Shown here in pieces: positions 19,539 through 42,751 of a DNA stretch of 64,000 bases. Position 1 is the first letter of the stretch. The number at the start of each line of letters is the position of its first letter. This DNA comes from Negativicutes bacterium. GTDB taxonomy: Bacteria; Bacillota; Negativicutes; UBA1444. Under the pieces are notes generated by a model. That model was not told the origin of the DNA. It saw only the letters and a program-made list of their open reading frames with translations, and did no database searches. The stretch covers positions 32,001 through 96,000 of the forward strand of contig CAXXIN010000014.1 in assembly GCA_963665275.2 (NCBI GenBank), in the 5' to 3' direction. The position numbers and the translations under genes were made by a program.

Positions 19539-19614
19539 GACTCACTAGCTCAATTGGTAGAGCATCTGACTCTTAATCAGAGGGTTCCGGGTTCGAGTCC
19601 CGGGTGGGTCACCA
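19539..19614 (+). tRNA. tRNA-Lys(CTT)
   Basis: 76-nt cloverleaf GACTCAC..GTGGGTC-A-CCA; anticodon arm TCTGA-CT-CTT-AA-TCAGA; TTCGA T-loop. Confidence 0.95.
19570..19614 (+). repeat. att core, left copy
   Basis: CTCTTAATCAGAGGGTTCCGGGTTCGAGTCCCGGGTGGGTCACCA, identical to 51335-51379. Confidence 0.95.
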
Positions 19615-19767: not shown

Positions 19768-21105
19768 TTAGGCGATGATGTGGTTTTCGTGCTCGGAGAT
19801 GATTTGTGATGTATGTTGATGAGTATCCTCAGGCGAATCTGATTGGGGCAGCTTGATTTTAGATCTTTTGGCGGCCAGCATTTTATTGCGATTTTTCTTT
19901 GCTTTACTGATTTTTGTGCGGAGAAATTTTGCGATCGGTGTCGGTTCAGCTACTACCGATTCGTCCGTTTTTTTCATGGGCGGCGTCAACAGGATCCGAT
20001 CCATCGCATTGGCGGCTTCCAATTGCATTTCCGGCAAGACATGGCTGTATAAATCTTGCGTGATCAAGGTCGAGGAATGCCCCAGCCGCTCGGAAATCGT
20101 CTTTACCGGGACATGCTCGAGCAGCAGCATCGTGGCGTGAGTGTGGCGAAGATCGTGAAAGCGGATGAGCGGCAGTTTCTCGCTGCGCAGAAGTTTCAGG
20201 AAGGCGTGGCTGAGAAACGCCGGATCATGTGGCGTTCCATTGTCATACGCCCAGACATAATCGAGCTTTTGATATAACGGGCCGGCCTCCAGCTTTTCGG
20301 CGGTCTGAATCGGTTTTAACGCGGTTAACAGGGTGATGAGCGCCTCAGGGAGTCGGATCGAACGCTCAGAGCGCTGGGTTTTTACGGGTTGGGATTTCAA
20401 TTGGCCGGCCACGCGGTTGAGTGAGTTGCGGACGAACATCAAGCCCCGATCCAGGGCGACATCTTGCCAGCGCAGCCCGCAGCATTCACCGCGGCGGAGA
20501 CCGCAGGTAGCCGCCAGCATAATCGGCAGGTGCAAGGGGGTGTTTTGGGCGGCCAGGATCAGACTGCTCAACAATTCGGGCGTGTAGGAGGAGGAACGGA
20601 ACTTTTCCGTTTTCGGCGCATCGACTGCCAAGATCGGGTTGTTCAGGATCAGGCACCATTTTACGGCGCGGTTCAAAGCGCCGCGTAACACCGCGTAGAC
20701 ATAATGGAGCATTGTTTTGGAGAGGGCGGGTTTTCGTTTGCGCAAGCGGCCAAGCAGATCTTGAAGATGGAGCGGACTGAGGGCTTTGAGTTCGATGCTG
20801 CCGATGTAGGGCGTGACGAAGGTCTCGACCGTCCATTTGTAGCTTTCATAGGTCGACTCGCGAACGGAAGGCTCCACATGATTGGCCAGCCAGCGAGTTA
20901 AAAACTCTTTGACTGTGATCTTCTCCGGATCCAGGAACTTGTCCCGTTCCTGTTCGACCAGCAAATGGGCCAAGGCTTCTTCGGCAAGGGCTTTGTCGGT
21001 GCCTGAACGAATCCAGCGGGTCTTCCATTTTCTCGTTTCGGGGTTTTGGCCAATACTCAAAACAAGATAATAAATATCCCCTTTCTTCTGAATGCTTCCC
21101 TTCAT
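19768..21105 (-). CDS. Tyrosine integrase (ICEBs1/phage type)
   Basis: N-terminal MKGSIQKKG arm-binding domain, GLRRGE, RFHDLRH, LGHS...DLYSH; RBS GGAGG. Confidence 0.95.
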   Translation of the reverse strand: MKGSIQKKGDIYYLVLSIGQNPETRKWKTRWIRSGTDKALAEEALAHLLVEQERDKFLDPEKITVKEFLTRWLANHVEPSVRESTYESYKWTVETFVTPYIGSIELKALSPLHLQDLLGRLRKRKPALSKTMLHYVYAVLRGALNRAVKWCLILNNPILAVDAPKTEKFRSSSYTPELLSSLILAAQNTPLHLPIMLAATCGLRRGECCGLRWQDVALDRGLMFVRNSLNRVAGQLKSQPVKTQRSERSIRLPEALITLLTALKPIQTAEKLEAGPLYQKLDYVWAYDNGTPHDPAFLSHAFLKLLRSEKLPLIRFHDLRHTHATMLLLEHVPVKTISERLGHSSTLITQDLYSHVLPEMQLEAANAMDRILLTPPMKKTDESVVAEPTPIAKFLRTKISKAKKNRNKMLAAKRSKIKLPQSDSPEDTHQHTSQIISEHENHIIA

Positions 21106-21251
21106 GTTGTGCCTCCTCTGCCGATATTTCATGACAAAAGGCCCGTCCGTCTTCACGGCGGGCCTTTCGGCACAGAACATATTTTGCTAATAGAATCGGT
21201 TTGTTGGGCGCGCCCATGCAGTTGCAGGTTAAATAGCGCTCTAGAGCGGAT

Positions 21252-22952: not shown

Positions 22953-23624
22953 ATGGAAAATATTGCAGCGATTGTTCAAAGTCTGCTGCCGGCGAAGGGC
23001 GCCGACGGATCCTGGCAAAGAGCGAATCTGCCAGTAGCGGAACCGTCCAACAGAGCACAGCTACATCCGGATAAAGTCCCGTTCATTACTTTTCCGGTAT
23101 CTATCGGCTTGTTGGAAGGAAAGCACGTCGAGGCCATGGGAATCGCCGTCTGGTGCTTTTTATGGTGCATCAATAGGGTAACCTCGGATCGCACCGATCC
23201 GGACGGAGAGCGTTGGGGTCAGGTTCTCGGCGGCTGCCGGTTCAACCATCAACGGATTGCCGATGAACTCGGGATCAGCCTGCGGGCGGTCCGTTACCAG
23301 ATGGATCGTCTGAGATCAGGAGGTTACCTGCGCATTACCCGTTGCCAGGACGGGCAGCAGGTGGAAGTCCGGCACAGCATCAAATGGCTGCGCAGAAAAA
23401 CTCAGGGCGCGCCAAACAGCCGGCCTGAACTGCCACCACCCGTCACAAAACTACCGGACATAGATCCTCCTGTCAGCGTCCCGGAAGTGCTGGTGAACCC
23501 GGTGGTTTCGGTGGCAGAGGAGTCTATCTCGCCAGAGCCCGATGCTGAAACCGCCAAGGTGTTTTCTCTGGCGGAAGCCTTGCGCAGGAAACAATGGGAG
23601 CGGGAGCAAGGCTTGCGGGAATAA
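22953..23624 (+). CDS. Winged-HTH protein, putative replication initiator
   Basis: NHQRIADELGISLRAVRYQMDRLRSGGYL wHTH; follows the origin-like region. Confidence 0.55.
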   Translation: MENIAAIVQSLLPAKGADGSWQRANLPVAEPSNRAQLHPDKVPFITFPVSIGLLEGKHVEAMGIAVWCFLWCINRVTSDRTDPDGERWGQVLGGCRFNHQRIADELGISLRAVRYQMDRLRSGGYLRITRCQDGQQVEVRHSIKWLRRKTQGAPNSRPELPPPVTKLPDIDPPVSVPEVLVNPVVSVAEESISPEPDAETAKVFSLAEALRRKQWEREQGLRE

Positions 23625-23698
23625 AACTCCCCTCCCGCCGAAAAAGCGGGAGGGGCTGGGGGTAGGTCCGAGACCCTAGCCGACCGAGGCGATTCCGA

Positions 23699-24134
23699 CA
23701 GGGAAAACTTCCAGTGAGCTGCCGCCACCTGCCGACACGTCGGATAATAGCCCCACGTTATGTCAACCCGAAGGGCGCGCAGCGAAAGCGAGCGGTAGAC
23801 GCGTAGCGGACTACTTTTGACATAACGTTCTATTATCGGATGGGCCGGCATGACTGGGCTGAATGATGGCACCCGTTCCCCCGTCCTCCGGCAGCTACCG
23901 TGGCCGATGGATCGGGCGCGGTGGCTGCTACCCAGGCAGCAACAGACGCTAGGCAGTAACGAGGCGTGATCCGGACCGGGGCAGTATGCGCCGGGGAGGA
24001 TGACGCCGACGGGATAGGGCAGGAATCTGCGGGAGGCGATGCGGTTCCCGGCGGTCTGATGCCAAGGCGGCCCGACGAACGGCAAACGGAAGCCCGCCAC
24101 GTCGGTGGCGGGCTGGAGGCCGGGCTAGGGACGC
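23699..24134 (+). repeat. Structured GC-rich element copy A, with paired dif-like sites at 23737-23843
   Basis: Homologous to the reverse complement of 45150-45759, with compensatory changes. Confidence 0.8.
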
Positions 24135-24157
24135 AAAGCGAGATGGGGACGTTTAAA

Positions 24158-25819
24158 TTATTTGGCTCCATATTGCTTCAGATATTCTATCGTTTTCTTA
24201 AACTCAGGAATATTATATTTTTTGTCACATTCCAGCGCATAGTCGAGAGCACTACGGCGACCCTGGTCAAGGACATGCGGATTAGCGCCCATTTCCAGCA
24301 TTCGTAGGATGATTTCGGGTGGGCCGCCCCAGGCCGCGTACATCAGAGGAGTTTTCCCATATTGATCTTGCACATTAATCGCTGCGCCTCTATCCAGCAG
24401 CAAGTTCATTTTTAACCTTCTGCCACCACCGTGCTTTGCGGCCAAAATTAGGGGAGTTCCGCCCTGATTATCCCGCGCGTTAATATCTGCGCCTGCGTCA
24501 AGCAATATCAGCATTTTCGTGTTGTTATCCATAGTCGTTGATACCATCCACATCAAAGGGGTTCTTCCTTCATCATCCCGCGCATTGACTGCAGCACCCA
24601 TTTCAACAAGTAATTTTGCGATATCCGGCTTATAGGCAGCGCTAGCCTGCATTAATACCGTCGTTCCTTTGTTGTTTTTCGCATGAATATCAGCACCGTG
24701 ATCAATCAACATTTTTGACAAATCGGAAGTCCCGTTTTTCGCGGTAGCATGCAGCAACGGCGTGGATCCTGTTTCGTCCCTGGCGTTGATATCTGCGCCT
24801 GCCTCCATCAGATATTGAATTTTGTTCATGCTTTCTATTTGGCTGGGCCTATGACTACTTTGATACCAACGTACTGCTTCAATAAATGCATTGTTTTTGT
24901 CCGCCGGCGAAAAACGAATCCCTTTGGACAACAAATCTTTGACTGTTTCCAAACTCCCCCGCCCGGCCGCGTAGATCAGAGCCGTTTTCCCGCTGGCATC
25001 TTCAGCCTGGATATCGGCGCCTTGGGCAAGCAATAAATCCACGGCATCCACTTTTCCCGTTTCGGCAGCACTCATAAGTGCGATTTGACCTTGGCTGGTT
25101 TTTGAATTGACATTTGCACCGTTTTCCAACAACAGTTTCATAGCTTCGAGATTTCCTCTGTTACTGGCTACCATCAGCAGCGTATTTTCTGGAAGGGAGA
25201 TGGTTTCCACGCCAGCGAAAGGCTTCTGTCTATATATCTTTACCGTCTTTCCACCACCATCAAGGTTTTTCGCATTCACATCCGCGCCTTTGGCGATCAA
25301 GAGTCTGGCCAGATCCAGGTTGCCTTGCTCCAGCGCAATTCCGAGGGGGGCTTCCCACTGGTTGTTTCTTTCGTTGATGCCGATTCCGCCATAGATCAAG
25401 GGCTTGGCCAGGAATGGATATTCTTTGACGGCCAGTGCCGTTGGCGTTCGGACTCCTTGGGCACCCAGCAAGCAACTGAGGATAGCGCAAGCAAGAGTGA
25501 ATCCTACGAAAATTTTCGCTCGACGTTTGGCTTTCGCATCTTCGGTTAAGGACCGGTAACGGGAGAGCATGTGGCCGCTGACAGGGCAGAGGACTATAAC
25601 AATAAAAACTAAACATAACACGAACCACTCTTCCAAATTCCAAGGCTCATGTTGAGCGATAAAAGCCCAGACAAAATAAGCGATAGGTAAAAGCACAAAG
25701 AATCGAACAACGGTATACCCATCGAAAATCCGTAGATTTTTCAGCGTAGCAATCATAAAGACCAACCAGCAAACAAATACAACACTGAGAAGAGGTGCGA
25801 TCTTCACTAGCAGCAGCAT
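24158..25819 (-). CDS. Membrane-anchored ankyrin repeat protein
   Basis: About 4 N-terminal TM segments; many G.TPL..A...G....LL..GADIN repeats. Confidence 0.9.
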   Translation of the reverse strand: MLLLVKIAPLLSVVFVCWLVFMIATLKNLRIFDGYTVVRFFVLLPIAYFVWAFIAQHEPWNLEEWFVLCLVFIVIVLCPVSGHMLSRYRSLTEDAKAKRRAKIFVGFTLACAILSCLLGAQGVRTPTALAVKEYPFLAKPLIYGGIGINERNNQWEAPLGIALEQGNLDLARLLIAKGADVNAKNLDGGGKTVKIYRQKPFAGVETISLPENTLLMVASNRGNLEAMKLLLENGANVNSKTSQGQIALMSAAETGKVDAVDLLLAQGADIQAEDASGKTALIYAAGRGSLETVKDLLSKGIRFSPADKNNAFIEAVRWYQSSHRPSQIESMNKIQYLMEAGADINARDETGSTPLLHATAKNGTSDLSKMLIDHGADIHAKNNKGTTVLMQASAAYKPDIAKLLVEMGAAVNARDDEGRTPLMWMVSTTMDNNTKMLILLDAGADINARDNQGGTPLILAAKHGGGRRLKMNLLLDRGAAINVQDQYGKTPLMYAAWGGPPEIILRMLEMGANPHVLDQGRRSALDYALECDKKYNIPEFKKTIEYLKQYGAK

Positions 25820-25942
25820 AGCAGCTCCTTTCCAATTGTTGCTATTTTCCGCAGGGTATTTCTGGGTTCCTGCGGACAAAAAGCTTAATTATATAGGACG
25901 ATTGTCCTGTTGTGGACATTGAGTTATTAGTGCGAGGTCAGA

Positions 25943-25977
25943 GCGGCCCGACGAACGGCAAACGGAAGCCCGCCACG
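25943..25977 (+). repeat. Element copy D (35-bp direct repeat of the 3' part of copy A)
   Basis: GCGGCCCGACGAACGGCAAACGGAAGCCCGCCACG, identical to 24067-24101. Confidence 0.9.
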
Positions 25978-26022
25978 GATGTGACGGGCATTACGGATCG
26001 ACGCCGGCAGCATACAGCTCGC

Positions 26023-26226: not shown

Positions 26227-26248
26227 GCCCTTTCTGGCAATAATGTGA

Positions 26249-26292
26249 TATCAAAGTAGTATCAAAGTAGTATCAAAATAGTATCAAAGTGC
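26249..26292. repeat. 4 x 11-bp tandem repeat
   Basis: TATCAAAGTAG x2, TATCAAAATAG, TATCAAAGTGC. Confidence 0.9.
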
Positions 26293-26370: not shown

Positions 26371-27219
26371 ATGCAAAAAAATCAATCACTCGAACGCGTA
26401 TTCCACTTTCAAAACAAGCCGGTGCGAACGCTGGACTTCTTTGGCTCGCTCTGGTTCGTGGCGAAAGATGTCTGCGAAGTTCTCCGAATTCGAACGAATT
26501 CCATCCGGTGCGTCCTGGATGAAGATGAGGTGCGAGCGTTCAATCCCAATGACAATAGTATTGACATTGGGCAAGAGGAAGTCGGGCATGGCGGACGCAA
26601 CATGCTGGTGGTAAGCGAACCCGGACTCTATTCTCTCGTATTGAAATCGCGCAGGCCTGAAGCGCGGCAGTTCAGGCGCTGGATTACCCACGAAGTTATT
26701 CCGGTGCTGCGGGCGGCCGGCAGCTACCAAATGCCAGCTCCTGCCGGGTCGGGTCAACTGTTGCAGTTTTCCCGGCGGGATCTGCTCAATCTGGCGGTGG
26801 AGGCGGAAACCGAATGCGAGGAGCTGCGCGGTGTCGTGGTCGACATGTTGCCCAAGGTTGAATTTTACGACCGGGTGGCGGACACGAGCGCGTCGTTTTC
26901 GCTCGGAGAAACGGCCAAGATGATGGAGATCCCCGGTTTCGGACGCAACAACTTGATCCGGTTCCTGCGGGATGGGGCCGGAGTCCTGATGGCCGACAAC
27001 GTGGCCAAGCAGAAATATATCAACCGAGGCTATTTTCATATCGTACAGAGGGACTACTGCGCGCCGGACGGTACGCCGCGCGTGAAAGCGGTGACGCGGG
27101 TCTATGAAAAAGGCGTCGATTATATCCGACACCTTCTGGATGACGGTGAATACTTGGTTGCTGCAAGCGGTAGCGCAGACAGCAGCCATAGTAGATCCGC
27201 ATCCGAAGGATGGAGGTAA
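26371..27219 (+). CDS. Phage antirepressor (BRO-N plus KilAC/ANT domain)
   Basis: WFVAKDVCEVL, VSEPGLYSLVLKSRRPEARQFRRWIT, PKVEFYD..GRNNL..FLR. Confidence 0.9.
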   Translation: MQKNQSLERVFHFQNKPVRTLDFFGSLWFVAKDVCEVLRIRTNSIRCVLDEDEVRAFNPNDNSIDIGQEEVGHGGRNMLVVSEPGLYSLVLKSRRPEARQFRRWITHEVIPVLRAAGSYQMPAPAGSGQLLQFSRRDLLNLAVEAETECEELRGVVVDMLPKVEFYDRVADTSASFSLGETAKMMEIPGFGRNNLIRFLRDGAGVLMADNVAKQKYINRGYFHIVQRDYCAPDGTPRVKAVTRVYEKGVDYIRHLLDDGEYLVAASGSADSSHSRSASEGWR

Positions 27220-27527
27220 GTGGTGGCAAGCGCCAGCGCAGACAGTGGTCATAGTAGATCCGCATCCGGAATGAAGTGAAGGACGAATGAGATCTGGACC
27301 GCGCGAACGCGGGCCGGTAGGGTGGAAACGTAAAACAGCCGCCGCAGGAGAATGCGGCGACTGTTTTGAAGAAGAGGATGATACTCAGGGGCAAGCAAAG
27401 CGACCAGACAGCGCTCGCCAGTATCTACGGGTGCATATCCGTTGATACTTCATTATCTTACACCTGATGCAAGAGGAAGGACAACTTGGATTTTCCTTGG
27501 TATCGGGCAAAAAGGGAGGCATATTTT

Positions 27528-29772: not shown

Positions 29773-30282
29773 CCAAGAAGAAAATCATTGGCTAAATGAA
29801 AATGACTGGCTGGAACAACTTCAGCTGGTCGTTTCGTTTCAGAACACCTGAGCAATGTATTCAAAGATGGCCGATTAGCGTCAGGCGGCAGAGTGATCCG
29901 GAAATTCCGGATAACTGCGTCTGACGTCAACGAGCCGCTGGCCGAGTTCCTGAGGACGGGACACTCGCGGGGGAGACCATCGAGCTAAAGGAAGCTGAAG
30001 AAGAATAGCATAACTGTGCGGGCTACAAATAAGTAGCCTGCTTTTTTTGTCTAAGTAGTATTTGATGGCAGGATTACGAAAGGTTTTCGGGAATCGATTG
30101 AACGAGTACCCGAAATTGCAAGTTGAGTATTTTTCCCACATTGGCTGATGAGAGTGACAGACGATTCCGCTTATTCTACTAATGGGTACAAAAAGTAATA
30201 AAGAATTTTATTTTTAGTATTGTAAATACTAAAAATAAAATGTATGATGTCATCAGATGGTCGATCATGGAGGAAATGGAAA

Positions 30283-31893
30283 ATGAATGCGAAAGCATTA
30301 GAATCTTTTGTCCAATTGTTATACATACGAAACATGGTGGATCGGGAGCAGATCTTGTTGGAAGCTGTTCGAGTCGTTCGGACTTTTCAACAGCTGCACA
30401 ACCGACAAGAAACCATTTCCGACACACCGGAAGATAAAGAACTCTTGTTTGCTGAAATGCAAAGTGTTTCGGAGTCTTCCGAATTGGGACACTTTCCCGG
30501 TGATCGGGAATTTTTCTACAACCTCTTTGCGGTTGCATGTGAACTCGACCTGATAGAGTTGCTGGTCAAGTCCGGCCGAAACGACCGCACAGGAATGCTG
30601 GCGCCCGCGTATCTGGTCGAATATTTGGCCGGTGGGATTACAAAAGACACCGCCCGGGTTTTCGTGGCAGAAGCTGAAAAATTTGCCGAAGGTCTGCAAA
30701 AATTAATAGCAGAGAATCCCAAAGTGGAATTTACATTAACGACGGAAAAGAAAATACATTATCTCCTCCTGGTAACGGCTTTTTCACAAAACCATAATGT
30801 CCGGATACTGAATCAATCGATTTATCGTGAACTGTTACATAAAGACAGCTATGATTTATTGCTCACCATTCCATCGTTTGGCAATCGTTATAACTCGGAG
30901 GAATCCAACAATAATTTTATCACTCGAGACTCGGAATGCATCGCCGTGGAAAACCTCCTCCGCCATCTTGGCGAGCGCGGAAAACTGGCCGCAGTGTTGC
31001 CTGCCAAAGTAACCTTCGCCAGCGGTCCGGTTCAGGAGTTTAGACAATGGATCATGGCCGACTATCACCTGGAAGCCATATACTCTCTGCCAGAAGGAAT
31101 CTTCCGGCCCTATGCTGGCATCAAGACGTATTTAATGGTTTTTGACGCAAAAACGACGATAGGGGTTACAGTCGGCAAAATAATCGATGAGGACTATAGA
31201 CTGCTAGTCAAACAAAAGCAATGGATTTCCGACGTAGAATTCAACGGGCACGAAGATTGGCGGACAGAAATATATCTCGCCGATGATAACGAAGCCATCC
31301 AGAAGTTTAAAACCTCCGGTCTCGAAAAAATCAAACTCAAGGATGTGGCAGAAATCTTCCGGGGCAAGTCCGTGCTCAAAGATGATCTGCAGCCAGGAAA
31401 AATAAGAGTCCTGAATATATCCAACATGGACGAAGGCGAACTCATCTTCGACGAAATGGACACCATCCACGAAGAAATTCGCAAGGTGAAACGGTATCAA
31501 CTGGAATCTGGCGATATCGTGCTAACCTGTCGGGGGACATCAAACAAAGTCGCCGTCTTCCCGGAAACAGAGCATGTGGTCATTGCCTCGGCAAACATCA
31601 TCGTGCTGCGTATCAAAGAAAAGATCGCGCCTCAATATCTGAAAATATTCCTGGATAGTCCGATCGGACAAATGATGATCAAGAGTTTTCAACGGGGAAC
31701 CACGATGATGAACATCAACCCCAACGACATCGGCGAAATGGAGATTCCGCTGCTGCCCATGGAAAGACAACAAAGTCTCGTTCGGCAGTTTCTGGCAGAA
31801 CAGGAACGATATCGGCGGGAAAAAGCGGAAATTGAACAGCGATGGGAAAAAGAACGCTCGGAACTATACAATAATTTTGTAAGGGGATGCTAA
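30283..31893 (+). CDS. Degenerate N6-MTase domain fused to a single HsdS-like TRD
   Basis: MTase-like core ([19 protein letters not shown]) with TIPSF in place of NPPF; C-terminal [31 protein letters not shown]. Confidence 0.75.
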
Positions 31894-31894
31894 G

Positions 31895-33433
31895 ATGGCG
31901 GAGAATGCGAATGGTGCAACACTTGGCTTTGAAGAAAAACTGTGGCAGGCTGCGGACAAAATGCGCAACAATATGGATGCGGCCGAATACAAACATGTTG
32001 TATTGGGCCTACTGTTTTTGAAATACATTTCCGACGCATTCGAAGAAAAATACGAAGAGTTGAACAAGGATGCACTGTCTGATCCAGAAGACCGAGACGA
32101 ATATACGGCAGTAAATATTTTCTGGGTCGCCAAAGAAGCCCGCTGGAACTTTATCAAGGAAAGTGCAAAAAGCCCGAAAATCGGTCAGATCATCGATGAA
32201 GCCATGGTGGCCATCGAGAAAGATAATTCCAATCTCAAAGGGGTACTGCCAAAAGATTATGCCCGGTCCACGCTGGACAAAACCCGGCTGGGTGAACTGA
32301 TCGATATTCTTTCCTTCAATATAGGGGATAAGGAGAGCCGGTCGCAGGATATCTTGGGCCGAGTCTACGAATACTTCCTCTCCAAATTTGCAAGCGCCGA
32401 AGGTAAAAACGGCGGTGAATTTTATACGCCGCAGTGCGTAGTAAAACTGCTGGTGGAAATGATCGAGCCGATGAAAGGGAGAATCTATGACCCCTGCTGC
32501 GGATCAGGCGGCATGTTCGTGCAAAGCGAGCGCTTCCTGAGTGCGCATAGTGGCAAGCGCGGCGATATTTCGGTATACGGGCAGGAATCCAATCCCACGA
32601 CCTGGCGGCTGTGCAAGATGAATCTGGCCATTCGAGGCATCGATGGCAAGCTCGGCGACTACAATGCCGATTCCTTCCATAATGACCTGCACAAAAGTCT
32701 GAAGGCGGACTATATCCTGGCGAATCCCCCCTTCAACATCAGCGACTGGGGCGGCGCGAAACTGACCGAGGATGTCCGCTGGAGCGGCTACGGCATACCG
32801 CCGGCCGGTAACGCAAACTACGCCTGGATTCTGCACATGCTCTGGCATTTGGCTCCCAGCGGCATTGCTGGATTTGTCCTGGCCAACGGTTCCATGTCGA
32901 CGTCAACGACGAGTGAAGGTGAAATCCGAAAACAGTTGGTGGAAAAGGACAACGTCGACTGCATCGTGACCCTGCCGGGGCAGCTGTTCTATTCGACGCA
33001 GATTCCGGTATGTCTGTGGTTTGTGACCAAGAATAAGGCGGCGAAGGGACACCGCAGCCGCAATGGCGAAATCCTGTTCATCGACGCGCGGAAACTGGGC
33101 ACCATGGCGGACCGGACCCATAAGGAATTTTATGACGAGGATATTAAAAAGATTGCCGATACCTACCATTCCTGGCGCGGTGAAGAAGGGACCGGAGAGT
33201 ATGCGGATGTCAAAGGTTTCTGCAAAGCAGCGAAGCTGGAAGAAGTCCGGGAACACGAATATATCCTGACGCCGGGGCGATATGTGGGGATCGAAGACGT
33301 GGAGGAAGACGCCGAGCCGTTCGAGGAGAAGATGACGCGCCTGACGGGGGAATTGGCCGAGATGTTTGCCAAGTCGCGGCATTTGGAAGGCGAGATTCGG
33401 CAGCGGCTGGGGGCGATCGGGTATGAGTTCTGA
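31895..33433 (+). CDS. hsdM: Type I RM methyltransferase subunit
   Basis: [23 protein letters not shown]. Confidence 0.96.
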
Positions 33434-33456
33434 AAAGGAAAGATTAGTATTGGGAT

Positions 33457-34671
33457 GTGATTATGTTGAATGAAAAAAACACGGTGTGGAAAGACACGGT
33501 GCTTGGTATATTTATTTCCATTCAACGGGGTCATGATCTGCCAGAGCAAAACCGCAATAGTGGTGAAATTCCAATAATCGGATCCTTCGGAATTACTGGC
33601 TTTCATAATAAATCCATAGCTCAAGGTCCCGGAGTAACTATTGGTCGAAGTGGCGCGTCCATGGGTGTTGTGTCTTATTCCGACAAAAATTATTGGCCGC
33701 TAAATACCGTTTTATATGTCACAGATTTCCATGATAATGATCCTAAATTCGTTTATTACCGCTTAAAAACGATTGATTTTACAATATATAATTCTGGCAG
33801 TGCGCAACCATCATTAAATCGAAATTATATATATTCGGTTCCATTATGCATTCCAAATAAAAACGAGCAACGTGCCATCGCAGCCACCCTCTCCGCCCTC
33901 GACGACAAAATCGAAATCAACAACCGCATCAACAAAACCTTGGAAGAAATGGCCCAGGCCCTCTTCAAGCGATGGTTCGTCGATTTCGAGTTTCCGGACG
34001 AAAATGGCTTGCCGTACAAGTCCTCCGGCGGGGAGATGGAAGAGAGCGGACTGGGGCCGATTCCGAAGGGGTGGAAGGTTGAATCACTCGATAGTATCGC
34101 GGATTATTTAAATGGACTTGCTATGCAAAAATATCGACCTGAAGGCGAAGAGTTTTTACCTGTTATTAAGATTCGTGAACTCAATCAAGGGAAACCTGAT
34201 GGACAAAGCGATAAAGCCAGCCCCAATATTGATTCTAAGTACATTGTTAATGATGGTGATGTTTTATTTTCATGGTCGGGAAGCCTAGATGTGAAAATAT
34301 GGTGCGGAGGTAAAGGCGGTTTAAACCAACATTTGTTTAAAGTGACATCTGATCGATATGAAAAATGGTTTTACTATTTGTGGACCAAGCACCATCTTGA
34401 AAAATTTCGCGGAATTGCACAGGATAAAGCAACTACCATGGGACACATACAAAGAAAACACCTTAAAGAATCTTTGGTAGATGTTCCTGCGCAAGATGTT
34501 TTGGGGAAAATTAATTCGATAATGCGGCCGATTTTTGACCTTTATATCACAAGAGAAATTGAAGCAGCGACCTTGGTGGCAATAAGAGACACCCTATTAC
34601 CCAAACTTATCAGTGGCGAAATCCGTATGGATAGCTCATTTGCGGAGGACATCGGTAATGGAGAAAGTTAG
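33457..34671 (+). CDS. hsdS: Type I RM specificity subunit
   Basis: Two TRDs; EQRAIAATLSALDDKIE central region; RDTLLPKLISGEI. Confidence 0.95.
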   Translation: MIMLNEKNTVWKDTVLGIFISIQRGHDLPEQNRNSGEIPIIGSFGITGFHNKSIAQGPGVTIGRSGASMGVVSYSDKNYWPLNTVLYVTDFHDNDPKFVYYRLKTIDFTIYNSGSAQPSLNRNYIYSVPLCIPNKNEQRAIAATLSALDDKIEINNRINKTLEEMAQALFKRWFVDFEFPDENGLPYKSSGGEMEESGLGPIPKGWKVESLDSIADYLNGLAMQKYRPEGEEFLPVIKIRELNQGKPDGQSDKASPNIDSKYIVNDGDVLFSWSGSLDVKIWCGGKGGLNQHLFKVTSDRYEKWFYYLWTKHHLEKFRGIAQDKATTMGHIQRKHLKESLVDVPAQDVLGKINSIMRPIFDLYITREIEAATLVAIRDTLLPKLISGEIRMDSSFAEDIGNGES

Positions 34672-35935
34672 AATTGAATCAATTGGTGATTTCGTGGAAA
34701 TATTAAGCGGTCTCCGAACACTCTTGGCGGAAGAAGGCAACGACAAAATTGCTTTCTTCCGGGGGCAAAAAAATTCCGGCTGGGAAGAGATTTATCCGAG
34801 TGTCTTTCGCGCCCCATATTTGATGGCTGAAAATGAATTATATTACAATCTGTCGATGAAATGCCCAGAAGCAATACCAGCTAATTTTTCGATTATAGAT
34901 AAACTGGTGCTTATGCAGCATTATGGATTACCCACGCGACTTCTTGATGTTACAACCAATCCTTTAGTCGCTTTATTCTTCGCTTGCCAGAAAAACACCG
35001 AACGAGTACCAGCGTCTGAGAACTGTGAAATGAGTCATGAAGGCTGCTTTCGGGAAATCGAAACAGACGGAGAAATCCTTGTTTTACGTGATTATCGTCC
35101 TCAACAAACCGGATTTGAGAGAGCAAGCGTTATTGCTGCATTGGCAGAAATTAATTATCAGTTTACCCTGGGCGAGTTAAAAATGATCATAGATCGGCGA
35201 GGGTTAGGGACGTATTCAATATCAAGTTTGTCCGATATGTTGCAGCAAAGCTTGCCAATAAACACAAGAATGAATAACGAAAGAATTAAGAGACAATCAG
35301 GAGCGTTTATTATTTGCGGAACGCATCTGAATTTTGAAGATACTAACTCTGACGATTCTGTGGCGGTGAAGAAAGCAATTAATTTGCGGACCCGATTTGA
35401 ACAAGACGCTGGGGTACGCTACGTGGTTGCGTGGGATAAGAAAGAGCAAATATTGGAAGAGCTTGATTTCATAGGAATCAATGAATCCTTCCTTTATCCG
35501 GAAATAGAGTATCAGTCCAAGTATATTAGAGAGCATCAAATAAGGAATATCCAGTTTGATAGCGGGATCGATGGCGCTGAGCGAACGAAATTAGCAGAAG
35601 AGCTAGAAGAAGTGAATTTATATGTATCGCCTGAAAACCTTGAACGTTTTGCAGAAAGAGCGAAGATAGAAATACTTCTTATATTACAAGGCGTTGAGCA
35701 GAAAGAAATAATAACAGATTATATTGGCGAGATACTAAGAAACAACTTGGATGTGGATTGGATAAATAGAGAGGCCAGCAAGGCCAAAATTGCAGTAGCG
35801 ATTAAGCGCGTATTCAGGGAACACACAACGCTCGATTTTGTTCGAGTGAAAAAACTTATAGATGACATTCTTTTAATTGTTGAAGATTGCTATCATAAAT
35901 GCGCAGCTTCACAGGAGGTACCTGAAAATGTTTGA
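34658..35935 (+). CDS. FRG domain protein with HsdR-like C-terminal segment
   Basis: FFRGQ, PSVFR, MQHYGLPTRLLDVTTNPLVALFFAC, RIKRQSGAF. Confidence 0.9.
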   Translation: MEKVRIESIGDFVEILSGLRTLLAEEGNDKIAFFRGQKNSGWEEIYPSVFRAPYLMAENELYYNLSMKCPEAIPANFSIIDKLVLMQHYGLPTRLLDVTTNPLVALFFACQKNTERVPASENCEMSHEGCFREIETDGEILVLRDYRPQQTGFERASVIAALAEINYQFTLGELKMIIDRRGLGTYSISSLSDMLQQSLPINTRMNNERIKRQSGAFIICGTHLNFEDTNSDDSVAVKKAINLRTRFEQDAGVRYVVAWDKKEQILEELDFIGINESFLYPEIEYQSKYIREHQIRNIQFDSGIDGAERTKLAEELEEVNLYVSPENLERFAERAKIEILLILQGVEQKEIITDYIGEILRNNLDVDWINREASKAKIAVAIKRVFREHTTLDFVRVKKLIDDILLIVEDCYHKCAASQEVPENV

Positions 35936-36642
35936 AAAAATTGATCAGAACAAGGCTCGCATTGACGCGCTGCGTCCGATGCAGGGCAGCTTGCTCACAC
36001 AGATTCGAGACTATTACAAAATCGGCCTGACCTACTCCAGCAATGCGCTCGAAGGCAACTCCCTCACGGAAACGGAACCAAAGTTTTGTTGGAGGACGGC
36101 CTGACTGTCGGCGGCAAGCCGATCAGGGACTACTACGAGGCGACGGGTCACGCCAAGGCCTATGACTATATCTATACGCTCATGCAAGGCGAAGAACTGG
36201 GCGAAGTGCAGCTGAAAACCATCCACCGTCTGTTTTATTCCCTGATTGATGAAGCGCAGGCCGGGCAGTACCGCAAAGAAAGGGTCATTATCTCTGGGTC
36301 GAAGTATCCGGTGCCGCACCGGAGAAGGTCCAAGCACTCATGAACGGTTTTTTTCACTGGTTGTCTACGCAGGAAAAGCTGATGCATCCGGTGGAATTCG
36401 CCGCGAAGGCGCACAAGGAATTTGTCTTTATCCATCCTTTTGTGGACGGTAACGGCCGGGTGGCGCGGCTGCTGATGAATCTTTGCCTGTTGCGGCAGGG
36501 GTACACGATGGCGATCATTCCGCCGGTTCTGCGAGGCGACTACATCGCTCTGCTGGAAAAAGCGCATGAGGACGACACCGCCTTTGTGAACTTCATTGCC
36601 GAACGGGTGGAAGAAACGCAGAAGGATTTGCTGCGGCTTTAA
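35928..36642 (+). pseudogene. Fic family protein with two frameshifts
   Basis: Three consecutive frames carry TYSSNALEGN, the central region, and HPFVDGNGRVARL; single-base deletions near 36079 and 36317. Confidence 0.8.
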
Positions 36643-36693
36643 AATAGCGGGGTCTTCTGGACAGGGTCTGATTTTGTTGGGGGGGTGCGATTC

Positions 36694-39600
36694 GTGACGG
36701 CGTATAATTTCAATGAATCCGAATTGGAGCAGGCGGTGCTGGAGTGCTTCCAGGAACTCTATTACGACATTCAGCAGGGACCGGAGATTTCACCGGGCGG
36801 TGCTTATCCGAACGGGACGACTACAACCTGGTGATTCTGCAAGACCGTCTCATGAATGCGCTCCGGCGAATCAATCCGAAAATGCCGACGGAAGCATTGG
36901 AGGACGCCTATCGCCAGGTCGTCATCGCCAAAAGCCCCAGCCTGATTGTGAATAATAAGGAGTTCTATCGCCTTATCACCGACGGAGTCAACGTAGAAGT
37001 CCGGCGGGCGGATGGATCCATCAAGACGGACAAGGTGTGGTTGTTCGATTTTTCGGATGAAGGAACGGACAATAACGATTGGCTGGCCGTCAACCAATAC
37101 ACCGTGATTGAAAATCATAACCATCGCCGGCCTGATGTGATCGTTTTCATCAATGGGATTCCGCTGGCGGTGATTGAATTGAAGAGCACCTCCGATGAAA
37201 ATGTGGGGGTTACCGAAGCCTTCCGGCAGTTTGAGACCTATAAAAACGAAATTCCCTCTCTGTTCATCTACAATTCATTTCTGGTGATCAGTGATGGCGT
37301 GAATGCAAAAGCGGGAACCCTGACCGCCAATGAAGATTGGTTCATGCCCTGGCGGACCATCGATGGCGTGGAGGTTGCCCCAACAGCGCTGCCGCAGCTG
37401 GAAGTGCTGATCAAGGGAATGTTTGATAAGCAACATTTCCTCGACATTATCAAGAACTTTATCCTGTTCCAGACCGACGGCAAGGAAATCTTCAAGATTC
37501 TGGCCGGCTACCATCAGTATCATGCGGTCAAGAAAGCAGTGACTTGCACCGAACGGGCCACCACGGAAGGCGGCGACCGGCGCATCGGTGTCATTTGGCA
37601 TACCCAGGGATCAGGCAAAAGCTATTCGATGGTGTTCTATGCCGGTCAACTGATCATGACCATGAACAACCCGACCATTATTGTGGTCACCGACCGGAAC
37701 GACCTCGACGAGCAGATCTACTCTACATTCAGCCGCTCCGAGGAATTTTTGCGCCAGTCTCCGGTCCAGGCCCTCAATCGGGCTGAGTTGCGGCAAATGC
37801 TCAAAGAGCGTCAGGCGGGCGGAATCATTTTTACTACCATCCAGAAATTCTCGCCGGGCGAGGATGGCGATACTGAACCGCTGCTGAATGACCGGCGCAA
37901 CATTGTGGTGATCGCTGACGAAGCCCATCGCTCCCAATACGGATTTGATGCTAAAGTGTCTGCCGGCGACCAGGGGGCGGCTGTGAAATACGGCTATGCC
38001 CGCTATCTGCGCGAGGCCATTCCCAATGCCTCGTTCATCGGATTCACCGGCACACCGGTGGAACTCACGGATAAGAACACTCCCGCCGTATTTGGCGATT
38101 ATATTGATATCTATGACATGACGCGGGCCGTGCAAGACGGTACTACCGTGAAAATCTTCTACGAAAGCCGCATTGCCAAGCTCGACCTGCCAGAATCAGA
38201 ACGTCCGAAGATTGACTCGGAGTTTGAAGAGATCACGGAATTTCAGGAAGAATCCTACAAAGAAAAGCAAAAAAGCAAATGGTCCCGTTTGGAGGCCATT
38301 GTCGGTGCAGAAAATCGTGTGCAAAAGATTGCCGAAGATATCGTCGAACACTATGAAAAAAGGCAGGCTGCTGCCTTTGGCAAAGCCATGGTGGTATCCA
38401 TGTCCAGGCGCATTGCGGTGGATCTGTACAACGCGATTGTTGCGCTGCGCCCCGAGTGGCACAGTGATAGCGATAATGAAGGCGTCATTAAAATTGTCAT
38501 GACCGGTTCTGCCTCCGATCCACAGGACTGGCAGAAGCACATCGGCCACAAAGCCCGCCGTAAACTGCTGGCGAAACGTATGAAAGATGAGAAGGACCCG
38601 CTAAAAATCGTCATCGTGCGGGATATGTGGCTAACTGGCTTTGACGTGCCGTCTATGTACACCATGTATGTTGACAAGCCGATGTCCGGACATAATCTGA
38701 TGCAGGCCATTGCCCGGGTCAATCGGGTGTTCAAGGATAAGCCGGGCGGCTTGGTCGTAGATTACATCGGCATCGCCGATAATCTGAAAAACGCCTTGTC
38801 GCAATACACCGTTTCCGACAGGGAGAATACCGGCGTGGATGTGGACCAGGCCGTAGACCTGATGAAAGAAAAATACTCACTGGTACGCGATTTGCTGCAT
38901 GGTTTCGACTACAGCAAGTTCAAGACCGGGACCGCATCAGAACGGATGAAGGCGATCGTGGCCTGCATCGATTTTGTGTTGGGACTGGGCGAAAACGGCA
39001 AGAAAGAATTCCTGAACTATGTCACGGAGTTGGCCAGGGCGTATGCGCTTTGCTCGACAACTGATGAAGCTGAGGAGCTGAATGTGGAGACTGGTTTCTT
39101 CAAGGCCGTAAAGGTGGGGATCATCAAACTGATTCCGGCCGGAGGGCCCAAGAAGACCAAAGCGCAGATCGAAGCACAGTTGAACCAGTTGATCGGCAAG
39201 TCGATCATTTCGGAAGAGGTCGTCGACATTCTCAGCGTTGTGGGCCTTGATAAACCCAATATCGGCATTTTATCCGATGAATTCCTGGAGGAAGTCCGGG
39301 GGTTGCCGCAAAAGAATCTGGCCGTAGAACTGCTGAGGCGGCTGATCGCCGGCAAGGTGAAGTCGGTCTCGCGCAGCAACCTGATCCAGTCGAAGAAGTT
39401 CTCGGAAATGCTGGAGAATGCGCTGAAAAAGTACCAGAACCGTTCCATCGAAACGACCCAGGTCATTATGGAACTGATCGAACTGGCCAAGCAAATGAAT
39501 GAGATGCAAAAACGGGGCGAGTCGGTCGGGCTGTCCTCGGATGAACTGGCTTTCTACGACGCGCTGGGGTCGAGTGATGCCGCCGTCATGATTATGGGCG

Positions 39601-39884
39601 ATGATATTTTGAAGCAGATTGCCCGCGATCTGACCACGACCATTAAAAACAACCTGGGCGTCGACTGGGCCATTCGTGAAACTGTGCGCGCCCAAATGCG
39701 CCTGACGGTGAAGAAGCTGCTCAAGAAATACGGCTATCCGCCGGACAAGCAGGAAGCTGCGGTGAAGACGGTCATGGAGCAGGCTGAGCTGATGTGCGGG
39801 AACGAATTGGAATATGAAACGGAATACCCGGAAAAGTCCCACCATGAATTTCCGCTGGCGGCGGACGGGAAAGGCGCGTGCTAA
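36694..39884 (+). CDS. hsdR: Type I RM restriction subunit (one frameshift near 36810)
   Basis: [14 protein letters not shown]-terminus in another frame joins ORF 36744-39884; [38 protein letters not shown]. Confidence 0.92.
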
Positions 39885-39932
39885 GTATAGAGAAATTTGC
39901 AATTCAAATAAACTAATGGGAGGGATGCAATA

Positions 39933-40931
39933 TTGGCAAGTAACGTAAACACAGCGTTTGCAGAGTTTTTGAAAAACACTGTGAATCTGGATGCAAATGA
40001 AACAAATACGGCGAGAAATAGTCGTGATTGGTTGGTTGGGAAGATACACGGTTTTGGGGGCAAGGACATGTTCCCTGTGCTTTACAATGAGAAGGATATT
40101 TTCTTTGGCTCTTTTGCTAGAAAAACAAAAATTCGCGAACTTGACGATATTGATATTATGATATGTTTGAGTGCTCTGGGGAGTACTTATAATCCCTATC
40201 AAGCTGGAAGTATTGAAATCACTGTGCCTGAATCGGCTGAAGCGCTGTATTGCCTATGCCACGATTACACTGACAAGTTGAATTCTAGAAAAGTAATAAA
40301 TAAAGTAATTTCAAAGCTAAGCAGTGTGCCGCAATATAAAAAAGCAGAAATAAGCAGGAACCAAGAGGCGGCTATACTAAATTTGCAGACCTATACTTGG
40401 AGTTTTGATATTATTCCTTGTTTTTTTACCTCCCCAGATCAATATTGCCGAACCTATTACTTGATTCCAGATGGTAGCGGCAATTGGCAGAAGACTGATC
40501 CGCGAATTGATAGTGATCATGTCTCGTCATTAAACCAGAAGCACAACGGTTATGCATTGAATTTAATAAGAATCGTCAAGTATTGGAATCGAAGACCAAC
40601 GATGCCATCGATGCAATCATATCTACTGGAATGTATGCTGCTGAATCATTTGGAAGGTTCGACCCAATGTTCGGATTATATTGACATTGCGTTTAGGGAT
40701 GCATTGGCTTACATATATTCTGCAATTTATAATAGCGTTCAAGATCCAAAAGGTATCCAGGGGGATCTCAACAATTTGCCAACTGAGGAAAGAAAAAAAA
40801 TATCCGATAGGGCGGCGATGGACTACAATAAGGCAATTGACGCAGGGACTTATGAAGGAAAAGGAGACCATAAATCGGCAATTAACAAGTGGAGGGAAAT
40901 TTTTGGCGATCAATTCCCGCCATATACATAA
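39933..40931 (+). CDS. SMODS/CD-NTase nucleotidyltransferase 1
   Basis: FGSFARKT....DDIDI, FDIIP, TDPR, IVKYWN, WREIFGDQFP. Confidence 0.85.
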   Translation: MASNVNTAFAEFLKNTVNLDANETNTARNSRDWLVGKIHGFGGKDMFPVLYNEKDIFFGSFARKTKIRELDDIDIMICLSALGSTYNPYQAGSIEITVPESAEALYCLCHDYTDKLNSRKVINKVISKLSSVPQYKKAEISRNQEAAILNLQTYTWSFDIIPCFFTSPDQYCRTYYLIPDGSGNWQKTDPRIDSDHVSSLNQKHNGYALNLIRIVKYWNRRPTMPSMQSYLLECMLLNHLEGSTQCSDYIDIAFRDALAYIYSAIYNSVQDPKGIQGDLNNLPTEERKKISDRAAMDYNKAIDAGTYEGKGDHKSAINKWREIFGDQFPPYT

Positions 40932-40989
40932 GACTCATTTAAGAAAATATCTGCTCATAGCAACTGCTGATTTTTCAGGAGGGATATTC

Positions 40990-41856
40990 TTGGCGACAAC
41001 AATTGCCCAATCTTTTGTGGGATTTAAATCCAACCTTGAGATTACGGGGTTACAGGCAGAAACCATTTCAACGCGACAAAATAATGTTCGAGATGCTGTC
41101 AAAAGAGACTTTGATGTTTTGGACTCGTTTTTAACTGGATCATATGCCAGAAGCACAATGATAGCGCCGTTAAATCAAGCGGATGTCGATATATTTACAG
41201 TTTTGAAAACGGAACACTATCGATCAGACGGGCAAGCATACTTGCTGGATAAGGTGAAAAATACATTAATAAAAACATATCCGAAATCACCCAAAGTCAG
41301 CAGAAATGGACAAGCTGTTACAATTACATTCACTGATTTTACAGTTGATCTTATTCCTGCATTTTATAGGAAGGGCGGCGGCTATTTGATTCCCAATACA
41401 ATTACTAGCAGTTGGATTGCCACTGATCCCAAACAGCATATTTCAATCTCAAGTGAGCAAAATAAAAACCACAATGGAATGTTGATACCATTGGTGAAAA
41501 TGATCAAATGCTGGAATAAGAGCATGAATTATTGGTTTGGTTCATTTCATCTAGAGGTAATGGCTCAACAAATACTCAAAAAGGTTATAATCAGTGATTA
41601 TCCGTCCGGGGTTAGGTTCTTTTTCGATAAGGGCAGGGATACAGTTGGAAAGAAAACCCCTGATCCAGCTGGCTATAACGACGATGTGGGTTGCAACATT
41701 AATACAAAGGCGAAAATTGATGAAGCCGCTAGTAAATTTACGACTGCTTACACTCGGGCAAGCAAGGCGGAATCATTTGCGCGAGACGGGAATATACCAA
41801 GTGCGGTTGAAGAATGGAGAAAAATTTTCGGCAATCAATTTCCGGCATTTGGATAA
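40990..41856 (+). CDS. SMODS/CD-NTase nucleotidyltransferase 2
   Basis: TTG start after GGAGG; LTGSYARST.....ADVDI, VDLIP, TDPK, MIKCWN, SFHLE, WRKIFGNQFP. Confidence 0.88.
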   Translation: MATTIAQSFVGFKSNLEITGLQAETISTRQNNVRDAVKRDFDVLDSFLTGSYARSTMIAPLNQADVDIFTVLKTEHYRSDGQAYLLDKVKNTLIKTYPKSPKVSRNGQAVTITFTDFTVDLIPAFYRKGGGYLIPNTITSSWIATDPKQHISISSEQNKNHNGMLIPLVKMIKCWNKSMNYWFGSFHLEVMAQQILKKVIISDYPSGVRFFFDKGRDTVGKKTPDPAGYNDDVGCNINTKAKIDEAASKFTTAYTRASKAESFARDGNIPSAVEEWRKIFGNQFPAFG

Positions 41857-41868
41857 GGGGGGGCTTGT

Positions 41869-42744
41869 ATGATAGGCGATCAAAATTCACCTGAAAATTT
41901 ACGACTTCTTGCGGCCCAGCGGCAGATATATATTGATGCAAAGTCATATGGAAAGTTTAGATTTTGGGGGTCGTTGGCATTTGCGGTGGTTGGGCCACTT
42001 GCTGCAGCGTATTGTGCTGGTGCTAGCATTTGGGTGCTGCTTTTGAGCAGTATTGCATGGCCCATTATGGTTGAAATATTTAAAGTAAGACAAAAAACTT
42101 TGACCTCACGAGCTGCTACCATACAGGAAGAGTTTGATGTGAATATGTTCGGGCTGCCATGGAATCATATTTTGGTTGGAAACAAAATAGCTAAGGAAAT
42201 TATAATTGAAGCGGATCGTCAATTTAGAGGTGATAAGAAAGACTTACAGAACTGGTATCCTGTTAGTTCACAAGAAAAAGGGCCTTTGGATATTCTTGTG
42301 AAGCAACGTACCAATTTGCTTTGGGATAGGCGATTGCGTATTAAGTACGCGAGGTTGTTAGGACTGGTAATTGCTTCAGTTTTTGTTGTTGAAGTTTGTA
42401 TCTGTATCTATCGAGAAATGAGATTATTAGACTGGCTTATTCAGTATTTTGCTCCATTGATGCCACTGATTTTACTTGGGATTGAAAATATTTTAACTCA
42501 TTATGAAATTGCAGGACAGAAGAAGCAGCTGGAAGACGTTATTATGTCAATTTATGAAAAAATTAATGATGGTTTAGTTGAAATATCCTTCGATAAAGAA
42601 TATCGACAAATTCAAGATGCCATATATTCAACGAGAAGACAAACTGTGTTGGTGCCGGAATTTTGGTCTAATAGGTTAAGTAATTCCTTTCAGAGCAACA
42701 TGATAGAAGCCGCGCGTGAGTATCAAAATCTGAAATTAAAGTAA
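41869..42744 (+). CDS. SMODS-associated 4TM (S-4TM) effector
   Basis: QN...LLAAQRQIY..AK, IQEEFD, NWY, QRTNLLWD..LR, QDAIY..R; four hydrophobic segments. Confidence 0.85.
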   Translation: MIGDQNSPENLRLLAAQRQIYIDAKSYGKFRFWGSLAFAVVGPLAAAYCAGASIWVLLLSSIAWPIMVEIFKVRQKTLTSRAATIQEEFDVNMFGLPWNHILVGNKIAKEIIIEADRQFRGDKKDLQNWYPVSSQEKGPLDILVKQRTNLLWDRRLRIKYARLLGLVIASVFVVEVCICIYREMRLLDWLIQYFAPLMPLILLGIENILTHYEIAGQKKQLEDVIMSIYEKINDGLVEISFDKEYRQIQDAIYSTRRQTVLVPEFWSNRLSNSFQSNMIEAAREYQNLKLK

Positions 42745-42751
42745 TGTTTTC

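Follow-up and report, generated by a model that had tools for sequence, protein, structure and literature searches.

The 64,000-nucleotide stretch of Negativicutes DNA analysed here, referred to below as the window (contig CAXXIN010000014.1, positions 32,001 to 96,000, assembly GCA_963665275.2), contains an island of 31.8 kb between 45-nt tRNA-Lys repeats. The left end of the island reads integrase, cI-like repressor, excisionase-like gene and DnaD-like loader, followed by element A, the proximal copy of a sequence block termed block E. The same block returns in inverted orientation as element B, 21.8 kb away, and these two are the only copies in the genome. Between them lies a module that begins with an ankyrin gene on the minus strand and continues with an antirepressor, an amidase, small lysis-region genes, a Type I restriction-modification (R-M) system, a set resembling the cyclic oligonucleotide-based antiphage signalling system (CBASS) that is made up of two SMODS genes and S_4TM, and a Schlafen/AlbA_2 ATPase, while ATPases, an ankyrin protein and DUF6979 are found past element B. 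Both copies of the block carry an imperfect hairpin, H1, whose stem is formed by two inverted sites resembling the chromosomal Xer site dif, and it is this hairpin with which the present analysis is mainly concerned. The features are compiled in Table 1; the labels G, C, L and f used in the text stand for genomes, contigs, loci and families of the comparison.

Table 1. Features of the island and of its two block E copies, in window coordinates.
Feature	Position	Strand	Basis
attL, 3' 45 nt of tRNA-Lys(ctt)	19570-19614	+	direct repeat identical to 51335-51379
Island integrase	19768-21180	-	phage-type tyrosine recombinase
DnaD-like helicase-loader gene, directly upstream of element A	22953-23624	+	phrog_7498, E 1.4e-20
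Element A (proximal copy): leader, H1, H2, M3	23672-24025	+	homology with 8 metagenome contigs begins at 23672; A/B alignment
H1 of A, imperfect hairpin with dif-like stem	23730-23850	+	DNA fold; arm-versus-arm alignment
A 5' dif-like site ACGTCGGATAATAGCCCCACGTTATGTCAACC	23737-23768	+	11-10-11; 18/22 arm bases identical to host dif
A 3' dif-like site CCATCCGATAATAGAACGTTATGTCAAAA	23843-23815	-	11-7-11; 17/22 arm bases identical to host dif
H2 hairpin of A	23888-23929	+	88% complementary to 45538-45579; covarying stem in 15 sequences
M3 hairpin of A	23963-24007	+	consensus pairs with compensatory changes
Repeat unit U after element A	24058-24113, again 25934-25989 beyond the ankyrin gene	+	direct repeat D3, 86%
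Bracketed module	24158-44768		Pfam and PHROGs
Element B (distal): H0, leader, H1, H2, M3, extension with second H2-like hairpin and U	45140-45873	-	border mapping
H2 hairpin of B	45538-45579	-	complementarity to H2 of A; covarying stem
H1 of B	45609-45727	-	DNA fold; covariance model R1
B 3' dif-like site GCATCCGATAACATCCCGTTATGTATAGT	45617-45645	+	11-7-11; 19/22 arm bases identical to host dif
B 5' dif-like site GCGTCGGATAACATTCGTTATGTAGACC	45716-45689	-	11-6-11; 17/22 arm bases identical to host dif
attR	51335-51379	+	45-nt direct repeat of the tRNA-Lys 3' end

An earlier annotation made without database searches (the sequence-only reading) had proposed four dif-like sites in this island, and all four are present exactly at the coordinates it gave. 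The two sites of one hairpin are separated by 43-46 nt and, as had likewise been proposed, each pair folds into one hairpin, in which the XerC arm lies at the foot, the partly unpaired spacer follows and the XerD arm stands beside the loop. Folded as single-stranded DNA (ssDNA), H1 of element A reaches -31.4 kcal/mol (z -4.47) and H1 of element B -30.4 kcal/mol (z -3.83), values that none of 200 shuffles equalled in either case, whereas the antisense strands fold worse, at -26.1 kcal/mol for A and -27.7 kcal/mol for B. The stem contains many G.T pairs that turn into A.C mismatches on the other strand, and the scores of covariance model R1 on copy B, 140 bits for the sense strand versus 26.3 bits for the opposite strand, are in line with this. 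In each copy the folding strand is the one read 5' to 3' into the module, which is the plus strand for A and the minus strand for B.

A genome scan for canonical dif sites returned only ACGTCCGATAATATATATTATGTAAAGT, at G000:C9:18605-18632. On this contig the GC skew is positive before ~20 kb and negative after, dif lying at the sign change, and of the 13 genomes in the order, 10 hold precisely one occurrence of the 28-mer (allowing at most 3 mismatches), while the reversed control gave 0 hits. Its single copy, the switch in GC skew and the order-wide single occurrence together identify ACGTCCGATAATATATATTATGTAAAGT as the chromosomal dif. The genome encodes both recombinases, XerD at 381.8 bits (cut-off 329.6) and XerC at 352.4 bits (cut-off 335.15). 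When the 3.97 Mb were scanned on both strands for dif arms at spacers of 5-10 nt, scoring the 22 arm bases, only 11 sites matched at 17 or more of them, comprising dif itself (22), the H1 sites (19, 18, 17 and 17, the four not being mutually independent) and six others, so that the 3' site of B is second in the genome only to dif. The hairpin arms are thus related to the dif of their own host, at 17-19 of 22 arm bases, as the sequence-only reading had supposed, and the likeness, which exceeds chance, spans the lineage-specific XerC arm, beyond the widely conserved XerD box. The spacer begins with TAT in dif, with TAG on both arms of A, with CAT in B, and with TCG, TCC, AGT or TTT in other copies. 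As a separate observation, in two genomes of another family (G358:C30:6683-6756 and G143:C2:136380-136453) the chromosomal dif forms one end of a long inverted repeat together with a second, inverted XerD arm ~50 nt away.

Among the 12 other genomes of the family, 5 gave a BLAST match to the element, and the 88 genomes from other families of the class gave none. A pattern based on the loop identified 12 metagenome contigs with the element, and the scan of genome contigs with this pattern gave 5 matches, 3 of them real (Sporomusaceae or 'Veillonellaceae' metagenome-assembled genomes) and 2 due to chance. No match of the element was obtained among 50,697 phage records; in viral contigs one pattern gave 0 matches and a second gave 3, all judged on inspection to be chance. 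A phage origin by similarity was therefore dismissed, nothing real having appeared among phage records or viral contigs. Altogether, 20 distinct H1 sequences were collected, few in number and akin to one another, and covariation was counted on 18 of them with a structure drawn by hand. The regular expression used for their extraction demanded TTATGT and CATAA, and of the H1-bearing loci from BLAST or the loop pattern only L044, which is cut by the contig end, failed it.

Across the 18 sequences pairing holds in 85.6% of cells, as compared to 28-45% when the partner is slid. Two-sided change is seen at 12 of 45 pairs, a count reached by 5 of 500 shuffles, and the cells changed on both sides number 39, which none of 500 shuffles reached; the covariation score is 0.163 versus 0.090 (0 of 500 shuffles). 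The variation lies in the outer stem and the spacer, where one example pair occurs as CG in 7, UA in 7 and AU in 1 sequence and another, again in the spacer, as GC in 11, AU in 4 and UA in 3. Most spacers have a bulge of 1-3 nt, in place of which L031, L043 and L050 show two mismatches. The TTATG columns of the XerD box are the same in 18 of 18, a box that the extracting expression had itself required. In the XerC arm, position 3 shows G.U in 15 and A-U in 3 of the 18 sequences, and a conserved G.G mismatch occupies position 6, which is unpaired in 15 of 18. Both this mismatch and the compensatory spacer changes between A and B, pointed out by the sequence-only reading, are real according to the arm alignment and the homologues, and in the homologues the arm boxes are kept, while changes in the spacer and the outer stem are compensated. 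This combination of fixed arms with a spacer that compensates and a foot that pairs beyond the arms is what would be predicted for a folded tyrosine-recombinase core and not for a generic stem. To judge from these comparisons, the H1 hairpin is under selection.

Only two loci carry a broken H1 (L047:4570-5856 and L019, that is G012:C246, at 3085-4538), and both have an IS91-family element that interrupts the 3' arm. One of these elements encodes an Xer/integron-like tyrosine recombinase together with Zn_Tnp_IS91, the other Y2_Tnp, in the opposite orientation. IS91-family elements may target the hairpin. The idea that L047 and L019/L034 represent Xer crossover products was abandoned, as both are IS91-family insertions. 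Concerted evolution of the two ends was dropped as well, since it is true in G010:C33 but fails in G010:C27.

Beyond the close homologues, model R1 found a match in 7 of 151 class genomes, with E-values that are rough owing to a shortened calibration. A class-wide pattern scan matched 54 of 401 genomes, but the reversed-pattern control also matched often, so only candidates picked by eye were examined, and these were kept only when the 5' arm and the arm-to-arm alignment had been checked. The copies retained are from G032 (family f21), G017 (f6; 2 copies) and three genomes of f25, G079 (2 copies), G156 and G119, while G063 failed the alignment check. The loops of these distant hairpins are unrelated and measure ~20-110 nt, whereas the XerC-type arms and the G.T at arm position 3 are kept. 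G032 and G119 retain the position-6 mismatch; two f25 copies have it at position 5 instead, and G017 lacks it. Spacer lengths are unequal (as with 6 and 7, or with 9 and 6), and the outer stems differ by family yet remain complementary (GCCGAC/GTCGGC, GGCGG/CCGCC, GGAGG/CCTCC). The dif sites of G032 and G017 share the same XerC-arm core. One G032 copy, a model-based match, has the deviant XerD box TATATGT, so that TTATGT, although present in all 18 close homologues, is not universal. The five genomes checked have 1-3 hairpin copies each. Lone copies vary in their orientation to neighbouring genes, which speaks against a cis-acting RNA. The generalisation that pairs always bracket mobile modules was discarded because of G079, where an inward-facing pair, 11.4 kb apart, encloses housekeeping genes (glycerate kinase, hydrogenase and acetolactate synthase).

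In the window, H1 is part of the larger block E, for which the order H0 (B-type only), leader, H1, H2, M3 and extension was adopted. The sequence-only reading had assumed a repeat of ~100 nt; A and B are instead alike over ~310 aligned nucleotides (76% identity, E 3e-42), and comparison with other loci shows the B-type block to measure ~735 nt, from 45873 to 45140, with both borders sharp. Homology is lost at 45862-45873 in 6 contigs and at 45139-45147 in 4 contigs, and the start of B, GGCGCGAGCACGG, stands sharply behind unrelated flanks. These flanks are AT-rich before the B-type start, and an AT-rich stretch lies at the end of the block, the GC content of which is ~0.60 compared with ~0.50 in the surroundings. 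GGCAG words recur throughout the block, and H2 and M3 show compensatory changes at 10 of 28 predicted pairs in 15 sequences. A protein-coding reading was rejected: with indels of 1, 2, 4 and 10 nt between A and B, and with long overlapping open reading frames (ORFs) that match no family, block E is taken to be non-coding. In an Rfam search of the window only two tRNAs reached the gathering score, and the best sub-threshold hits (E 0.41-10) belong to unrelated families.

Several smaller repeats and hairpins were noticed around the block. A repeat of 56-120 nt with a GC-rich hairpin, to which the unit U of Table 1 belongs, also occurs at 42785-42919 and 45197-45318, and flanks the ankyrin gene and the Schlafen-like gene on both sides, in the manner of inserted cassettes. 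A lone leader fragment with unrelated genes on either side is present on another contig, at G000:C16:251779-251819 (locus L067:8268-8325), and its break point coincides exactly with the H1 foot. Terminator-like hairpins are found just outside each element (23629-23655 and 45965-45979) on the strand read outward from the module, so that transcripts exiting the module would cross the element in antisense and then stop.

Given the presence of XerC and XerD in the host, the dif-like arms and the selected pairing, the description of H1 as a folded Xer-type site is well supported as far as structure is concerned. The reading favoured here goes further and is held tentatively, at slightly less than an even call: on the basis of the sequence comparisons, H1 may be a folded single-strand DNA site for the host XerC/XerD, working like attP(+) of the cholera-toxin phage CTXphi or like integron attC. 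Both hairpins read into the module in the window as well as in G010:C33, G010:C27 and G032, so that all 4 of the 4 island pairs face inward, three of them belonging to one family; the gene order of the module is common to G010:C33, G010:C27 and G012:C142. The proximal hairpin stands downstream of replication genes, immediately so in the window and after ~0.5 kb in G032. Geometrically, this inward-facing arrangement would make each folding strand part of the lagging-strand template whenever a fork from the replication module of the island enters the bracketed module, and the strand might become single as such a fork passes. The host XerC/XerD pair would then bind and cut the folded H1, XerC would perform a single-strand exchange as at CTXphi attP(+) or integron attC, and replication would complete it, with H0, H2 and M3 serving as accessory structure. 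The most likely outcome would be excision, exchange or capture of the bracketed module.

A number of observations weigh against recombination by Xer at H1. No recombination product or partner site was found in the sequences compared. The island ORFs scanned with Pfam and PHROGs encode no source of ssDNA, rolling-circle Rep, relaxase and inovirus genes all being absent, and neither phage structural nor transfer genes were seen among them. The island sits at tRNA-Lys, with an integrase of its own, and not at dif, and both hairpins are intact in the chromosome, unlike in integrated CTXphi. With the dif spacer, TATATA, A agrees at the first two bases only and B already disagrees at the first base, and A and B also have spacers unlike one another; judged from these letters, spacer compatibility of H1 with dif appears weak, and no compatible partner is evident. 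Furthermore, H1 is embedded in a GC-rich block of 350-735 nt with further covarying hairpins and sharp borders, an appearance that would suit an RNA gene or an origin just as well as a recombination site. The two loci with a broken H1 are IS91-family insertions and not Xer products, and the f25 hairpins stand alone between housekeeping genes, so module bracketing is not general. Of the folded-ssDNA Xer-type site put forward in the sequence-only reading, the structure, the dif-like arms and the host XerC/XerD hold, while a recombination product, a partner site and a source of ssDNA did not turn up. Exchange between A and B, for whose junctions that reading had proposed a search, is unlikely, because all four spacers differ. 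Inversion or 2-micron-like flipping of A and B was set aside for the same reason, and because all islands seen represent the same isomer. A double-strand operator for the cI-like repressor was also considered and rejected, since the half-site spacing varies over 5-10 nt with compensation.

Alternatively, the whole block could be a structured RNA of the island, acting as a leader or as an independent non-coding transcript, with H1 as one helix and a dif likeness that is incidental or serves another DNA-level purpose. Its GC-rich composition, the sharp B-type start behind AT-rich flanks and end at an AT-rich stretch, and the at least four covarying hairpins with many G.U pairs on one strand would agree with this, as would the position of A, which lies where a leader would, between the replication gene and the antirepressor-lysis genes. 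However, no Rfam family matches, no sigma-70-like promoter is found in 23300-24400, the only one at B stands behind terminator-like hairpins, and no promoter box recurs at a fixed distance across 10 loci. Moreover, B is antisense to the surrounding co-directional genes, other families have H1 on its own, lacking the remaining parts of the block and oriented variously with respect to neighbouring genes, and a structured RNA gives no reason for an 11-nt arm that copies the lineage's own XerC arm; this explanation is considered improbable. Another alternative is that of ordinary Xer sites that act as double-stranded DNA, be it for cer/psi-like multimer resolution with accessory sequence or as a pdif-like array of XerC/D and XerD/C sites, the hairpin then being a by-product of inverted sites. 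The 5-8-bp spacers of the 3' sites are like those of plasmid Xer sites, A lies beside the replication module, a frequent place of resolution sites, and in a dimer the pairs A x A and B x B would be directly repeated and have the same spacers. The four sites also alternate in orientation, as is reported of pdif sites around modules (PMC5790767, PMC7399989, PMC12907356). Yet the pairing reaches into the outer stem beyond the Xer arms and covaries there, and the spacers within one hairpin are unequal in length and hence not those of compatible duplex partners. The bias of the G.T pairs to one strand, the conserved G.G mismatch, which makes each duplex site deviate from dif, and the lone copies in core-genome intergenic regions likewise count against duplex sites, to which little probability is assigned.

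The hairpins may also be replication elements, associated with an origin or with primosome assembly on the lagging-strand template, in which a dif-like stem recruits or mimics Xer only secondarily. The surroundings of the proximal copy fit this view: it follows the DnaD-like loader in the window, while in G032 an O-like initiator, a loader and SSB end ~0.5 kb before it, with a small opposite-strand ORF between, and in G010:C33 and G011 the ORF upstream of the hairpin belongs to phrog_9804 (function unknown) and weakly resembles a helicase loader. The GGCAG words recurring through the block are compatible with such a role, and so is the geometry of the inward orientation, by which the folding strands would lie on the lagging-strand template of forks entering from the backbone. 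On the other hand, the block is GC-rich and lacks an AT-rich unwinding region, the second copy lies 5-22 kb away with no adjoining replication gene, and the lone f25 copies are not near replication genes. Since the copying of dif by the arms would also be left unexplained, a primary role in replication seems quite unlikely.

Within the module, the cargo at 30244-44768 represents a defence set, with the Type I R-M system and its FRG-domain gene, the two SMODS nucleotidyltransferases with the S_4TM effector, and the Schlafen/AlbA_2 ATPase. Between the antirepressor and amidase genes a 43-nt unit stands in tandem (27163-27205 and 27226-27268), and L017, L019 and L028 have the same unit immediately upstream of the element. 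Three to four tandem 11-nt repeats at 26242-26285, just upstream of the antirepressor gene, have the appearance of operators or iterons. Further along the window, a Gp49-like gene and another phage-type integrase (63096-63980) come after a second tRNA (Gly), and the segment 62121-63980 is probably the start of a second island that runs off the window.

A literature search, which did not extend to supplements, found no description of such hairpins in Negativicutes. To our knowledge, the cholera-toxin phage is the one case from which detailed knowledge of folded single-strand Xer sites exists; apart from these, the tyrosine-recombinase sites that fold are integron attC. The hairpins described here form a conserved family that copies dif in a different phylum, where they lie on chromosomal islands of double-stranded DNA and surround defence genes. 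Should Xer act on them, single-strand Xer recombination would be a wider route of gene movement than thought, a testable model for the exchange of defence modules between islands would be at hand, and the origin of integron recombination from Xer would be touched upon as well. If Xer does not act on them, they still constitute an undescribed and strongly structured element whose mimicry of dif calls for another explanation.

Among known systems, cer and psi consist of an Xer core with a 6-8-bp spacer and ~200 bp of adjoining conserved sequence, near replication functions. The H1 element resembles them in combining an Xer core with adjoining conserved sequence close to replication functions, but differs in having two inverted copies per element, the second core being selected for pairing; no accessory-protein sites as in cer/psi were identified in it. 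Integron attC sites are imperfect hairpins that an Xer-related tyrosine recombinase recognises as folded ssDNA, and they present boxes, an unpaired spacer, extrahelical bases and a variable loop. H1 is similar in being a folded imperfect hairpin with conserved boxes and non-paired bases (the G.G being unpaired in 15 of 18), spacer bulges and loops of ~20-110 nt, and in its tie to swappable accessory genes; general features of attC are given in PMC5027507 and PMC4792948. In contrast to attC, which follows each cassette as a direct repeat, H1 occurs in inverted pairs around multi-gene modules of 5-22 kb, and its boxes are dif arms and not attC boxes. The window showed neither an integron integrase nor attI or a cassette promoter. 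Its sole tyrosine recombinases are of phage type (19768-21180 and 63096-63980), and the integrase of the island reaches 36.4 bits with the integron-integrase model, as against a cut-off of 265. The H1 element is thus not an integron attC member. A broader proposal would make it the integrase-free counterpart of the integron in Negativicutes, in which dif-copying hairpins, processed by housekeeping XerC/XerD when single-stranded, border accessory modules (defence, lysis) for cutting out, swapping or single-strand capture, as a living intermediate between Xer/dif and IntI/attC; as it stands, this is rather unlikely.

With the pdif modules of Acinetobacter the H1 element shares accessory modules bounded by inverse Xer-type sites, with the host XerCD as the presumed enzyme (PMC5790767, PMC7399989, PMC12907356). 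The sites described there are single 28-bp duplexes with 6-bp spacers, located on plasmids, whereas here there are two sites per border, with unequal spacers and selected pairing, on chromosomal islands of Negativicutes, and a 6-nt spacer is present in only 1 of the 4 window sites. The element is therefore not a strict pdif module.

A further comparison is that with CTXphi, to whose attP the sequence-only reading had likened the hairpins. According to PMC4246890, attP1 and attP2 have spacers of 12 and 5-7 bp and lie 90 bp apart, and integration is decided by homology next to the XerC arm. Here, by comparison, the spacer has little or no dif homology beside the XerC arm. There is no ssDNA phage, the replication genes being DnaD/O-like; the island uses tRNA-Lys and its own integrase, while dif is on another contig; the hairpin stands unsplit in the chromosome, twice and inverted; and its loop is conserved within the family of the window, with further hairpins alongside. 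The H1 element is accordingly not a member of the CTXphi-type integrative mobile elements exploiting Xer (IMEX), and the likeness to CTXphi attP does not extend to genes for an ssDNA circle, to a position at dif or to a split hairpin. It does hold for the inverted, paired dif-like sites, for arms taken from the host dif and for the presence of XerC/XerD: as in attP(+), two inverted dif-like sites with unequal, non-standard spacers (10/7 and 6/7 here, 12 and 5-7 bp in CTXphi) lie tens of bases apart (43-46 nt here, 90 bp in CTXphi), and in both systems the hairpin presents one XerC/XerD core whose arms copy the dif of the host (PMC4246890).

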